DNA of 3,993 nucleotides from a virus (Duplodnaviria > Heunggongvirae > Uroviricota > Caudoviricetes): IMG/VR virus record IMGVR_UViG_2740892230_000039. The stretch is one strand, 5' to 3'. The translations under genes and the position numbers were made by a program. Within the stretch, counting starts at the first letter, position 1, and each line of letters opens with the position of its first letter. Under the pieces are notes generated by a model, which worked only from the letters and a program-made list of their open reading frames with translations, was not told the origin of the DNA and made no database searches. Shown piece after piece: positions 2,053-3,993 of this stretch.

Positions 2053-2139
2053 TTATCCCCAGCGGAAAAGCGAATACAGAATAAATGCCACCGCTATTGC
2101 AACTCCAACTGCGGTGAATGCTTCAGGCCAATTCATCAT
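2053..2139 (-). CDS. Hypothetical 28-aa hydrophobic peptide (MMNWPEAFTAVGVAIAVAFILYSLFRWG), predicted single transmembrane helix; not in the supplied ORF track
   Basis: Hand-translated. AGGAGGTGA lies immediately upstream. The ATG at 2139-2137 overlaps the TGA stop of the upstream 240-aa ORF (2138-2136) in an ATGA arrangement. A 19-residue uninterrupted hydrophobic stretch is followed by RWG. Stop TAA at 2055-2053, 4 nt before the next start. Confidence 0.35.
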   Translation of the reverse strand: MMNWPEAFTAVGVAIAVAFILYSLFRWG

Positions 2140-2858
2140 TTCACCTCCTGCGGCGGTTCTGGTAGCTGCATCCAGTGGGTTACCTCTTTGAGATACAGGT
2201 CTTCGCCATCACCGTCATCCCAAGTGGGCTTGCCATCATTAAACCAGTCGCCATATACGCCGACCTGAGTGTTGGGGATGTTTGGTGGGTAGTTGTTTTT
2301 AAAGTCAGCTGCTAACACATAGCATTGTCGCTCTCCCATTTCAGGCATTCGCTCACTACAGCTTATCCAACCATCCGGAGTTACCGGATAGTTGCCATTC
2401 ACAAGGTCAGCTCGAACATATAGCGTGTCATCATGGTGTTGATTGTGGCTGCACCACGTTAATTCGCTTAACTNNNNNNNNNNCTCAGGCCACTGGCGCT
2501 CCATGTTGATCTTCAATTTATCTTCCATAGCAGCGGTAATTTCAGCATCGCTGATGCCAGCACGGCGCTGTGCATCCCACAACAGAAACTGCATATCAGC
2601 CCACTCGCTAAGATCGTCTGNNNNNNNNNNCGTTTGCAGCCAGATATGGGCTGGCGCATCTTGGCAAGGTGTATTAACTGGCAACTTGTAAGTTTGGCTT
2701 ACAGGTTCTGCACTATCAGCCTTGCGGCGCTCCTGTAGCTCGCGCAGAGCCGCTACAACATAATGGCTATTGTGCTGGTCAGCCCACAGAATGAGCCGAA
2801 TCAACGTTGCATTTGAAACGTATTCGTCTGTTAGTTTGCTATTGGTAAAAGTGGTCAT
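2136..2858 (-). CDS. Ea22-like prophage protein, 240 aa as translated through two N-runs; C-terminal W/D/G/P-rich region reminiscent of DUF551
   Basis: Minus-strand ORF with AAGGTGA 7 nt upstream of the ATG. The N-terminus MTTFT parallels MTTIT of the upstream paralog. An internal 45-aa module (DDLSEW...ERQWPE) is shared with the upstream gene. The C-terminal region (YPVTPDGWISCSERMPE...GVYGDWFNDGKPTWDDGDGEDLY...WMQLPEPP) matches my recollection of the DUF551 domain found in Ea22-like phage proteins. The true length is uncertain because the ORF is interrupted by N-runs at 2474-2483 and 2621-2630. Confidence 0.55.
   Translation of the reverse strand: MTTFTNSKLTDEYVSNATLIRLILWADQHNSHYVVAALRELQERRKADSAEPVSQTYKLPVNTPCQDAPAHIWLQTXXXXDDLSEWADMQFLLWDAQRRAGISDAEITAAMEDKLKINMERQWPEXXXXLSELTWCSHNQHHDDTLYVRADLVNGNYPVTPDGWISCSERMPEMGERQCYVLAADFKNNYPPNIPNTQVGVYGDWFNDGKPTWDDGDGEDLYLKEVTHWMQLPEPPQEVK
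2474..2483. other. Run of 10 N (gap or masked bases)
   Basis: Directly visible in the sequence. Lies immediately left of repeat copy A. Confidence 1.
2484..2620. repeat. Copy A of a diverged 137-bp direct repeat (coding module), bounded on both sides by 10-N runs
   Basis: Aligns without gaps to 2886-3022, with 131 of 137 positions identical. The six mismatches are at 2484, 2499, 2522, 2550, 2556 and 2586. Confidence 0.95.
2621..2630. other. Run of 10 N (gap or masked bases)
   Basis: Directly visible in the sequence. Lies immediately right of repeat copy A. Confidence 1.
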
Positions 2859-2870
2859 AGCTATTTCACC

Positions 2871-3251
2871 TTAATNNNNNNNNNNTTCAGGCCACTGGCG
2901 TTCCATGTTGATCTTCAATTTATTTTCCATAGCAGCGGTAATTTCAGCATCACTGATACCAGCACGGCGCTGTGCATCCCACAACAGGAACTGCATATCA
3001 GCCCACTCGCTAAGATCGTCTGGTTCGGCTGCGGCTTCCAGTGCCTCTTTTGAGAGGTGTTTCAGTGGACCAATGGGGCCAACGCAGCCAAATGTGGAGT
3101 CAGACCATTTGGCATGCTCGTGGCGAATCTGTTCGCGTTCCAGTGATGCCAGTGCAATTCGTGCCAGTTCCATTTGTTCGCCACGAGTAAGCCCGTTTTC
3201 AAGCGGATTTTTAATGAACAATTCAATACGTTCTTTGGTAATAGTGGTCAT
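2871..3251 (-). CDS. Ea22-like prophage protein, upstream paralog, 126 aa as translated; C-terminus undetermined because the last four codons fall in an N-run
   Basis: The ATG at 3251-3249 overlaps the TGA stop of the upstream 69-aa ORF (ATGA). GAGGA lies 7 nt upstream. The N-terminal part is charged and helical-looking (ERIELF...EQMELARIALASLEREQIRHEHAKW), followed by the shared DDLSEWADMQFLLWDAQRRAGISDAEITAAMENKLKINMERQWPE module. The apparent stop at 2873-2871 comes directly after the 10-N run, so the real end is unknown. Confidence 0.5.
   Translation of the reverse strand: MTTITKERIELFIKNPLENGLTRGEQMELARIALASLEREQIRHEHAKWSDSTFGCVGPIGPLKHLSKEALEAAAEPDDLSEWADMQFLLWDAQRRAGISDAEITAAMENKLKINMERQWPEXXXX
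2876..2885. other. Run of 10 N (gap or masked bases)
   Basis: Directly visible in the sequence. Lies immediately left of repeat copy B, between the two Ea22-like genes. Confidence 1.
2886..3022. repeat. Copy B of the diverged 137-bp direct repeat, preceded by a 10-N run
   Basis: Aligns without gaps to 2484-2620. Corresponding mismatch positions are 2886, 2901, 2924, 2952, 2958 and 2988. Confidence 0.95.
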
Positions 3252-3457
3252 GTGTTAATCCTCAAAACTTTATGCCCGGGCGCAAAAGTACGTGTTTTGT
3301 CTTTGCTTATTCGCCACCCGTCTTTACGGGCCTCTTTTGCACAACCAGACCATGACGTACCGATATACTCACCGAAGTCTGGCACTGGATATACACCTTC
3401 CGTACACTGGCGACAATCACAATAGAGATGCATGGTGTAACTTGCAGCGATAGCCAT
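3248..3457 (-). CDS. Hypothetical small Cys-rich protein, 69 aa (C-x-C-x2-C then a distal Cys and two His)
   Basis: Strong ribosome-binding site (AAAGGAGAG, then a 4-nt spacer, then ATG). The start is 1 nt after the stop of the upstream 62-aa ORF, and the stop overlaps the downstream start. Possible metal-binding motif HLYCDCRQC ... SGC ... PGH. Confidence 0.5.
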   Translation of the reverse strand: MAIAASYTMHLYCDCRQCTEGVYPVPDFGEYIGTSWSGCAKEARKDGWRISKDKTRTFAPGHKVLRINT

Positions 3458-3458
3458 A

Positions 3459-3647
3459 TCACTCTCCTTTAGTCCGCAAGTAGTTTTTCCAGCGGTTTTG
3501 CGCCGCGCTGGGCTTTTTGCAACAACTGTGACCCATCACCCCGCAACACCCCATCAACCTCACTCGTCTGTTACTAATCCTCACCCATCGCCAGACCCCA
3601 ACACCGTTTCTGCGAGCTAACAGAATCTTTGCTTTACGGTTTTTCAT
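3459..3647 (-). CDS. Questionable ORF, 62 aa, Arg/Trp/Gly/Cys-rich (contains GCCGVMGHSCC); coding status uncertain
   Basis: For coding: AGGAGAG 7 nt upstream of the ATG, and the stop is 1 nt before the next gene's ATG. Against: the ORF lies in a strongly purine-rich, degenerately repetitive stretch (C-rich on the plus strand, about 3530-3606) that would yield G/W/R/V codons by chance, and it contains a terminator-like hairpin. Confidence 0.3.
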   Translation of the reverse strand: MKNRKAKILLARRNGVGVWRWVRISNRRVRLMGCCGVMGHSCCKKPSAAQNRWKNYLRTKGE

Positions 3648-3819
3648 CGTTTTGCTCTCCTGCGTCTCTTTGCTGCTCGTCGTGCCGCTGCAATACCGGT
3701 ATGGCGGCGCTTTGGTGCCGGGATGATGTTGTCAGCTATCAGGACATGTGGCTTTGCAATTAGCGCAGAAGCCCAAAAACGAGTCGGGTACGGTAACAAG
3801 CCGATACATGCCACACGCA

Positions 3820-3993
3820 CTACTCACCCTCTTTGATGCGAATGCCTGCGGCGCGTGGCACATTAACTTCCACGATGCGCACTGTTGGTTTGTACATCTC
3901 AATCGCTGTCAGCCAGTCAGCTCCTGTCATGCGCTTTTCCGCATCGCCATTAGTCCACTGAACCGGTACACCAATAGCCTTCATCGCGATTTC
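3820..3993 (-). CDS. 3' end of a gene entering from beyond the right edge (C-terminal 57 aa: EIAMKAIGVPVQWTNGDAEKRMTGADWLTAIEMYKPTVRIVEVNVPRAAGIRIKEGE); product not recognised
   Basis: Hand-translated minus-strand frame, open from the window edge at 3993 to a TAG stop at 3822-3820. Same orientation as the rest of the operon. Too short to appear in the supplied ORF track. Confidence 0.45.
   Translation of the reverse strand, partial: EIAMKAIGVPVQWTNGDAEKRMTGADWLTAIEMYKPTVRIVEVNVPRAAGIRIKEGE

Follow-up and report, generated by a model that had tools for sequence, protein, structure and literature searches.

Apparent tandem paralogs in a lambdoid prophage scaffold are very probably alternative gene versions set in series across N10 placeholders

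The two neighbouring, module-sharing genes that can be read from the 3,993-nucleotide stretch of viral DNA analysed here (the window) are very probably a scaffolding artefact (probability roughly 94%), in which alternative versions of a prophage gene were strung across placeholders of ten Ns. The window covers the terminal 4 kb of CCPR01000381.1, a draft scaffold of assembly GCA_000752855.1, and it consists of four contigs, c1 (1–2473), c2 (2484–2620), c3 (2631–2875) and c4 (2886–3993). These are linked by three strandless N runs of exactly 10 N each, at 2474–2483 (c1/c2), 2621–2630 (c2/c3) and 2876–2885 (c3/c4). Piece c2 has a placeholder at either end, and the first base of c4 directly follows one. 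An earlier note had read this stretch as tandem paralogs produced by a within-locus duplication; from closed relatives and from the behaviour of the same scaffold elsewhere, we infer that c2 has most likely been misplaced.

The repeat itself is real sequence. As the earlier note had described, the segments at 2484–2620 and 2886–3022 are 137 bp each and differ at six positions, all of them transitions; in the minus-strand frame five of the six differences are synonymous and the remaining one exchanges Asp and Asn (D/N). The probability of at least five synonymous differences out of six is about 0.001 with all single changes equally likely and 0.013 with transitions only. The near-identical gene starts are also present, as two 17-nt starts with one base different, a motif with two matches in the window and none in 200 shuffles. 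The tandem placement of the repeat and the boundaries of both open reading frames (ORFs) are not established by the window, and neither copy is joined to both of its flanks by determined sequence. The picture of two intact adjacent genes, each with the module, is not confirmed: the 240-aa ORF at 2136–2858 crosses two N runs and has X residues in its translation, and the 126-aa ORF at 2871–3251 crosses the third and ends in 2871–2875, bases from the final codons of another gene, a homologue of BP-4795 ORF6. The stop of ORF 2871–3251 is therefore fortuitous.

In closed genomes, the outer pieces of the 240-aa ORF form a single uninterrupted gene. Positions 2–2473 of the window have 1 mismatch in 2472 bp relative to the closed E. 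coli genome 2013C-3264, c3 is identical to it at 245/245 bases, and c1 and c3 are collinear there with 25 bp between them, a spacer also found in phage BP-4795. Both in the closed genome and in BP-4795, c3 is joined to position 2473 through CGCCATCTTCTGGCCATACTCCAGC without a break. This junction of c1, 25 bp and c3 occurs in 207 closed E. coli genomes and gives a 196-aa DUF551 gene without the module, so that closed genomes, used as a stand-in for the resequencing that had been proposed, show the locus with no copy of the module between c1 and c3. The 3′ part of the gene is the end of c1 (2136–2473, minus strand), assigned by PF04448 and by the closed-genome match. Its 5′ part lies in c3 (2631–2858, minus strand), starts with ATGACCACTTTTACC at 2858 and is 100% identical to positions 4998–5225 of closed-genome locus L001 and to BP-4795 ORF5. 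The suggestion that the downstream ORF carries a C-terminal DUF551 domain was confirmed: PF04448 matches residues 163–237 of ORF 2136–2858 at 72.8 bits (cut-off 22; profile positions 1–68 of 68), and it also matches the closed-genome form of the gene.

Pieces c1 and c3 are part of a BP-4795-like lambdoid prophage at mlrA/yehV and encode an ordinary stand-alone DUF551 protein. The two parts at 2136–2473 and 2631–2858 together are the gene known as BP-4795 ORF5 (CAD88808.1) or WP_000206819.1 in lambdoid prophages integrated at mlrA (yehV), and the window and BP-4795 have int, xis, the 44-aa ORF, the DUF4222 gene and ORF6 as common neighbours. Where BP-4795 ORF5 has its central 25 bp, the window shows N10, 137 bp and N10, an assembly difference and not a biological one. 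Next to this gene, c3 ends with the last four codons (IKVK) and the stop of the BP-4795 ORF6 homologue, a 63-aa hypothetical protein (2861–2875, minus strand; stop TAG at 2861–2863). These bases are identical to L001 5228–5242, the 3′ end of an annotated 63-aa CDS. Since c3 ends within the last four codons of this unrelated gene, the c3/c4 join cannot be a 10-bp gap; it is probably a mis-join of two different prophages.

The same signature recurs at other placeholder joins of the scaffold, in single-copy genes. CCPR01000381.1 has three further N10 joins, inside yehW and yehY, and the flanks of each are overlapping versions of one reference segment placed in tandem (85 bp at 96.5%, 133 bp at 94.7% and 100 bp at 96.0% identity), with differences that are mostly synonymous (3/0, 4/3 and 4/0). 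Judged from these joins, the N10 runs of the scaffold do not stand for 10-bp gaps. Each of the two yehW versions matches a natural allele at 100% identity, and closed genomes have one such allele apiece. Exact suffix–prefix overlaps between consecutive scaffold pieces were not found; the overlaps are allelic, at 95–96% identity. For single-copy genes GCA_000752855.1 appears to hold two alleles, a sign that the data set may be mixed or merged and a point relevant to all users of the assembly. A literature search by accession and WGS prefix returned no paper on it.

Profile matches place the shared module in PF04447 (DUF550), a family of predicted MazZ/MazG-like dATP/dGTP pyrophosphohydrolases, and not in Ea22. 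Positions 2886–3251 (minus strand) are the first 366 nt of an EaA-like DUF550–DUF551 fusion gene, ended by the gap, and encode an N-terminal 41-aa segment and the MazG/MazZ-like PF04447 domain. PF04447 matches ORF 2871–3251 at 124.4 bits (cut-off 23) over profile positions 1–82 of 97, up to the gap, and the complete gene of strain 55989 at 143 bits over positions 1–96 of 97. The whole of c4 (2886–3993) is 100% identical to a prophage of 55989/O104:H4 and lies, in closed genomes, within a different, torI-type prophage. Such EaA-like fusions belong to P22-like/torI-type prophages, and the complete gene in 55989 encodes 209 aa, continuing for 264 nt beyond c4 into the linker and DUF551; unlike it, the window copy stops after WPE at the gap, without the linker and the DUF551 domain. 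The 55989 fusion ORF is annotated in part as WP_244399359.1, and is labelled “Phage EaA protein” in phage ev017.

The orphan piece c2 (2484–2620, minus strand) is an allelic version of the PF04447 domain's second half, apparently misplaced in the DUF551 gene. It matches profile positions 37–83 of 97 only, with the ExxE helix absent, and is 100% identical to a DUF550–DUF551 fusion gene in another prophage of 2013C-3264, ~340 kb from the mlrA prophage of that genome. Relative to the segment in c4 it is a second allele, contributed either by another prophage or by reads of a second strain. The proposal of purifying selection on the module stands in part: the module is constrained and protein-coding, and the selection acts between alleles, not between neighbouring paralogs. 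Among closed-genome alleles of the gene, dN/dS was 0.12–0.16, and it was ~0.04 for c2 against c4. The surplus of silent changes is real, and its source is a single functional enzyme gene whose alleles are under purifying selection.

The pattern ExxE...ExxD is the acidic metal-binding motif of the MazG family, and it is present here as KEALEAAAEPDDLSEWAD, read in translation (EALE...SEWAD). MazZ was the only match in a PDB sequence search, across the shared module and with SEWAD aligned to its LEVAD, a very weak match (E 0.41) that serves as a consistency check and not as proof. PF04447 membership and the ExxE...ExxD motif are shared with MazZ of cyanophage S-2L (PDB 7ODY) and the DUF550 protein of Acinetobacter phage SH-Ab 15497, both MazG-HisE-fold dGTP/dATP pyrophosphohydrolases. 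Unlike either, the domain here has no PurZ/DatZ context and no Z-genome, and it forms a fusion with DUF551 within the early-left operon of a temperate lambdoid phage. MazZ function has been assigned to PF04447/DUF550, the activity that converts dGTP/dATP to dNMP and PPi having been shown for distant PF04447 members only (PMC12884076, PMC8342488).

A branching assembly graph would explain how the pieces came to be ordered in this way. Positions 2152–2396 of c1 have 98.4% identity to the DUF551 part of DUF550–DUF551 fusion genes in other prophages, with an exact match of 53 bp (2344–2396). Because the DUF551 end of c1 is about 98% identical to the fusion genes, the assembly graph would branch there, and the scaffolder may have strung its alternative paths in a row, separated by N10. 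That the chimeric ORF keeps the module in frame would then be a coincidence: 157, the c1–c3 distance as printed, and 25 leave the same remainder of 1 on division by 3. A real insertion would likewise put the module in frame across the two gaps, an outcome that arises by chance alone ~1 time in 9. This account is partly conjectural, as c2 sits between c1 and c3 and does not abut its twin in the manner of the yehW and yehY versions.

A genuine tandem would mean that, by recombination in the source strain, the neighbouring DUF551 gene acquired a copy of the DUF550 domain's second half, and that both genes are translated; it would be a module shuffle caught in the act, leaving neighbouring genes with a constrained 45-aa segment. 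The in-frame module of ORF 2136–2858, the near-identical 17-nt starts and the highly mosaic nature of lambdoid exo-xis regions (PMC10834534) would fit such an event, yet we regard it as highly improbable. At either end the module meets an N10 placeholder rather than sequence, in a scaffold whose other N10 joins make false duplications in single-copy genes, and closed genomes identical in the flanks have 25 bp at this place. The inserted piece would be half a catalytic domain, and c3 ends within the last codons of another gene. The c1 end, c2 and c3 occur in one place in 0 of 5,426 closed E. coli genomes, none of which has c3 beside c4, and the arrangement of the window is absent from 50,697 phage and 72,556 plasmid records, the best matches among which place both module copies onto a single copy. 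With c2 bounded by N10, 25 bp in its position in closed genomes and the arrangement found nowhere in these records, the within-locus duplication claimed earlier is not supported. Even harder to credit is that the N runs are masks over 10 true bases each and that the architecture is as printed. Every run is exactly 10 N, as a mask would have it, but X residues are already present in the gene call of the NCBI record itself (exact look-up), the distance from c1 to c3 must be 25 bp and not 157 to match the 207 closed genomes, and the overlapping duplicated segments at the yehW/yehY joins are impossible under a simple 10-base mask.

A scaffolding artefact remains the preferred reading, and a further alternative differs from it in the origin of c2 and c4 only: both would come from one clonal genome with several co-resident lambdoid prophages, whose repeats collapsed or branched in assembly, and not from mixed or contaminated reads. 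Closed STEC genomes do have up to 8 places that match window positions 2631–3993, and 2013C-3264 by itself combines the mlrA prophage (c1/c3) with another that has the exact c2. Prophage repeats cannot, however, account for yehW and yehY, single-copy chromosomal genes with two alleles in the same scaffold; these require sequence from a second strain or from a reference, or else a merged assembly. We consider a purely clonal origin rather unlikely, and both sources may contribute. The case is a caution that N10 gaps in draft scaffolds can line up two alleles of the same segment one behind the other, that such alleles mimic duplicated modules “under purifying selection”, and that chimeric in-frame ORFs reach protein databases. 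An exact protein look-up, which identified the source scaffold, placed the chimeric 240-aa product on one contig only. The BP-4795-like prophage at mlrA/yehV, the stand-alone DUF551 gene and EaA-like DUF550–DUF551 fusions are already known.

The Ead_Ea22 profile of the ead/Ea22-like family (PF13935, IPR025153) recognises an N-terminal segment together with a central coiled coil. We used Pfam PF13935 with positive controls in place of NCBIfam, in which a scan for an Ea22 model gave no match, annotated Ea22-like proteins included. The profile recovered lambda Ea22 (1.1e-28), the Ea22-like protein of 55989 (4e-45) and that of closed-genome locus L002 (1.1e-18). ORFs 2136–2858 and 2871–3251, which had been called Ea22-like, gave no PF13935 match at E ≤ 0.01, and the closed-genome forms (the L003 fusion and the L001 DUF551 gene) gave none even at E ≤ 1. 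BLASTP against lambda Ea22 and annotated Ea22-like proteins reached a best E of 0.05–0.1, across a linker of 17–67 residues only, with all other matches at E > 2. The DUF550 and DUF551 genes resemble the lambda Ea22 family in their neighbourhood, the exo-xis early-left region, and differ from it in that both ORFs are without the Ead_Ea22 signature or significant similarity; the Ea22-like label does not apply to them. The 3′ end of a genuine ead/Ea22-like gene lies at 3820–3993 (minus strand), where it leaves the window and the scaffold end. Its 57 aa match the C-terminus of the Ea22-like protein from 55989 at 100% identity, and that protein carries PF13935. A mosaic prophage region, as the earlier note had envisaged, is in agreement with closed-genome comparisons and published work, in which DUF551 is a portable domain; the Stx-phage variant Ea22_V2 also has a C-terminal DUF551 (PMC10834534).

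The remaining genes of the window are all on the minus strand. In c1, positions 1–74 form the junction with chromosomal mlrA (yehV), which the annotated integrase adjoins in closed genomes. They are followed by a 428-aa prophage tyrosine integrase (75–1361; Pfam Arm-DNA-bind_2 and Phage_integrase; BP-4795 int), an 84-aa xisR-type DUF1233 excisionase (1395–1649; PF06806 at 2e-29; RefSeq xisR), a 44-aa hypothetical homologue of BP-4795 ORF3 (1668–1802; same annotated position in closed genomes and BP-4795) and an 80-aa DUF4222 gene (1806–2048; PF13973 at 9e-16; closed-genome annotation). In c4, a 69-aa phage gene (3248–3457; phrog_926) is a hypothetical protein in 55989, and a 62-aa ORF (3459–3647; phrog_1380) lacks annotation there. 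Every matching PHROGs family is of “unknown function”.

We also considered the N-terminus of the stand-alone DUF551 protein as a degenerate DUF550 domain, and rejected it, BLASTP and Pfam finding nothing there. A MAFFT alignment of the two aligns WAD / SDAE / KLxxN / WPE..DGE, and the short WPE..DGE junction remnant is the one part of this likeness that we retain.

The repeated feature at 2136-3251 is not real as described, with a residual uncertainty of about 3%, and the genes that underlie it are already known. Three stretches of exactly ten N (2474-2483, 2621-2630 and 2876-2885) divide the window into four pieces, referred to here as c1 (1-2473), c2 (2484-2620), c3 (2631-2875) and c4 (2886-3993). 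The earlier note interpreted this region as tandem minus-strand paralogs, and the repeat it observed is present: c2 aligns to the first 137 bases of c4 (2886-3022) with six differences, all transitions, of which five are synonymous and one exchanges Asp and Asn in the minus-strand frame (P ~0.001 for at least five of six synonymous under equal single-base changes, 0.013 under transitions only), and the 17-nt gene starts at 2842-2858 and 3235-3251 are identical except at one base, with no such pair in 200 shuffles. The reading of two intact genes is not confirmed: the downstream copy is exactly c2, an orphan piece flanked at either end by N10, the upstream copy starts at the first base of c4, and both ORFs cross N runs (XXXX in translation). 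The 126-aa ORF (2871-3251) extends across the third run into 2871-2875, bases from the last codons of another gene (IKVK; TAG at 2861-2863), so that the stop codon of the ORF is fortuitous.

Comparison with gap-free genomes recovered the gene interrupted in the window. In the closed genome 2013C-3264, c1 matches with one mismatch in 2472 bp and c3 at 245/245 positions, and the 25 bp between them (CGCCATCTTCTGGCCATACTCCAGC) complete a 591-bp gene encoding a 196-aa DUF551 protein without the DUF550 module. The identical 25 bp lie between the c1 and c3 sequences in BP-4795, a sequenced Stx1 phage that integrates in yehV, and the genes of this phage follow the same order (int, xis, ORF3, ORF4, ORF5, which is the stand-alone DUF551 gene, and ORF6). 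The uninterrupted c1-c3 junction is found in 207 closed genomes, while the end of c1, c2 and c3 occur in one place in 0 of 5,426 (best coverage 68%, from the c1 end plus c3, spanning 355 bp), and c3 adjoins c4 in none of these genomes. Phage and plasmid records likewise lack the window arrangement, and in their best matches both window copies fall on one and the same copy. Both the N10 boundaries of c2 and these searches speak against the proposed within-locus duplication.

The pieces have different homes. c1 and c3 match mlrA-site BP-4795-like prophages of O26/O145-type STEC; c2 matches, at 100% identity, a segment of a gene in a second prophage of 2013C-3264, which is of the torI type and lies ~340 kb away from the one at mlrA; and all 1,108 bp of c4 recur at 100% identity in a torI-type prophage that adjoins the csc sucrose genes in 55989 and O104:H4 strains. 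From these matches, the scaffold appears to join two different prophages (c4 versus c1/c3). The genes matched by c2 and c4 are each one uninterrupted ORF (209-222 aa), labelled "EaA" in phage records, with a 41-aa N-terminal segment (MTTITKERIELF...), a PF04447 domain, a linker PKDGEPRLHIKEPGN and a DUF551 domain. RefSeq/PGAP cuts this ORF in two (L003 4237-4866, L008 2237-2866 and L004 3198-3866, three loci with the fusion gene), as an N-terminal "pseudogene, missing C-terminus" and a CDS from an internal Ile codon (IGPLKH...); with no stop or frameshift between the two features, the split is likely an annotation artefact. Window positions 2152-2396 are 98.4% identical to the DUF551-coding portion of the fusion gene in 2013C-3264 and exact over 2344-2396, including 2383, the sole c1 mismatch to the stand-alone gene, where the window carries the fusion-gene allele (Val for Ala); this allele may be a natural variant or the consensus of a collapsed repeat.

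The scaffold behaves in the same manner elsewhere. The chimeric 240-aa product occurs, by exact look-up, in one contig only, CCPR01000381.1 (14,916 bp; GCA_000752855.1), of which the window is the terminal 4 kb and which has three more N10 runs in the chromosomal genes yehW and yehY (joins within 5155-5335, 7383-7659 and 7680-7890 of L005, the locus from this scaffold). When compared against 2013C-3264, the sequences flanking each of these runs are overlapping versions of one reference segment: 85 bp at 96.5% identity in yehW (three synonymous differences, no non-synonymous), and 133 bp at 94.7% (four and three) and 100 bp at 96.0% (four and none) in yehY. An N10 here therefore marks an unresolved join that places two alleles of one segment in tandem. 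Each of the two yehW versions reproduces a natural allele at 100% identity, closed genomes carry that segment once, and the joins inflate the gene calls to 275 aa (yehW) and 470 aa (yehY). By the logic of the earlier note, yehW and yehY, which are single-copy housekeeping genes, would also be "discovered" to contain duplicated modules under purifying selection. This behaviour suggests that the data behind GCA_000752855.1 came from mixed strains, were merged, or were patched from a reference. The shared DUF551 stretch (2152-2396) would tie c2 and c4 to c1 via read pairs or graph paths, and the scaffolder would then have placed three alternative branches from this segment in series. Since 157 (10+137+10) and 25 both leave a remainder of 1 on division by 3, the chimeric ORF keeps the module in frame; the chance expectation of an in-frame module is ~1 in 9.

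What the two copies have in common corresponds to the second half of Pfam PF04447, the "dATP/dGTP pyrophosphohydrolase" family once named DUF550. ORF 2871-3251 matches profile positions 1-82 of 97 (124 bits), and c2 within ORF 2136-2858 only positions 37-83. The acidic motif of MazG-type enzymes, ExxE...ExxD, appears here as EALE...SEWAD, with c2 carrying the ExxD half only. The sole PDB sequence match, MazZ of cyanophage S-2L (7ODY), is weak (E 0.41) and aligns across the module; DUF550 has been equated with MazZ-type dGTP/dATP pyrophosphohydrolases (PMC12884076; PMC8342488). The DUF551 call proved correct (72.8 bits, full profile), and the Ea22-like assignment did not: PF13935 (Ead_Ea22) scores strongly on its positive controls, which were lambda Ea22 plus a pair of neighbouring Ea22-like proteins, and gives no match to the closed-genome forms of both genes at E<=1 or to the two window ORFs at E<=0.01, with BLASTP to Ea22 non-significant. 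The end of a genuine Ea22-like gene lies at 3820-3993. Ea22_V2, one Stx-phage variant, has a C-terminal DUF551 domain (PMC10834534), which may be the source of the Ea22 association. The linker DGEPRLHIKEPGNSPVT (L003 fusion protein, 124-140) is weakly similar to DGNQFLVVRHPGKTPVI of lambda Ea22 (107-123; E 0.05-0.1, five-sequence comparison), a likeness that may come from an inter-domain linker common to mosaic joints, or may be due to chance.

The inferred coding constraint is real, with dN/dS of 0.12-0.16 between closed-genome alleles (366-nt segment, Nei-Gojobori) and ~0.04 between c2 and c4; such constraint is normal between alleles of a functional gene that different prophages or strains carry. 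The EaA-like protein is probably an early-left (pL-operon) product in which a predicted pyrophosphohydrolase domain is fused to a portable DUF551 domain; by family membership, the N-terminal domain is predicted to be a tetrameric dNTP pyrophosphohydrolase of the MazG-HisE fold, with purine dNTPs as its substrates. In the stand-alone DUF551 gene, which appears to be a derivative, another N-terminal segment takes the place of DUF550. Both genes share their first codons (MTT[F/I]T) and, exactly at the junction, a 14/16-nt match (WPE..DGE; CTCGCCATCTTCTGGC vs CTCACCATCTTTTGGC, protein WPEDGE vs WPEPKDGE; 4968-4997 of the mlrA-site locus L001 vs 3482-3500 of L004 and 4482-4500 of L003). This match, between the 25 bp absent from the window (2473 to 2631) plus flank and the sequence beside the fusion-gene module, looks like the remnant of a mosaic junction where DUF550 was replaced.

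Three further features of the window were recorded. The 5' portion of the DUF550 gene contains a 17-nt inverted repeat (3111-3127 / 3177-3193), whose arms are 88% complementary and separated by 49 nt. A 62-aa minus-strand ORF (3459-3647) matches phrog_1380 end to end (9e-32) and is without annotation in the identical 55989 sequence. The first base of the window falls within mlrA (yehV), at its annotated 5' end, and the integrase gene stops at 75, which places the prophage-chromosome junction (att site) within 1-74; the mlrA beside this prophage is annotated as 233 aa in closed genomes.
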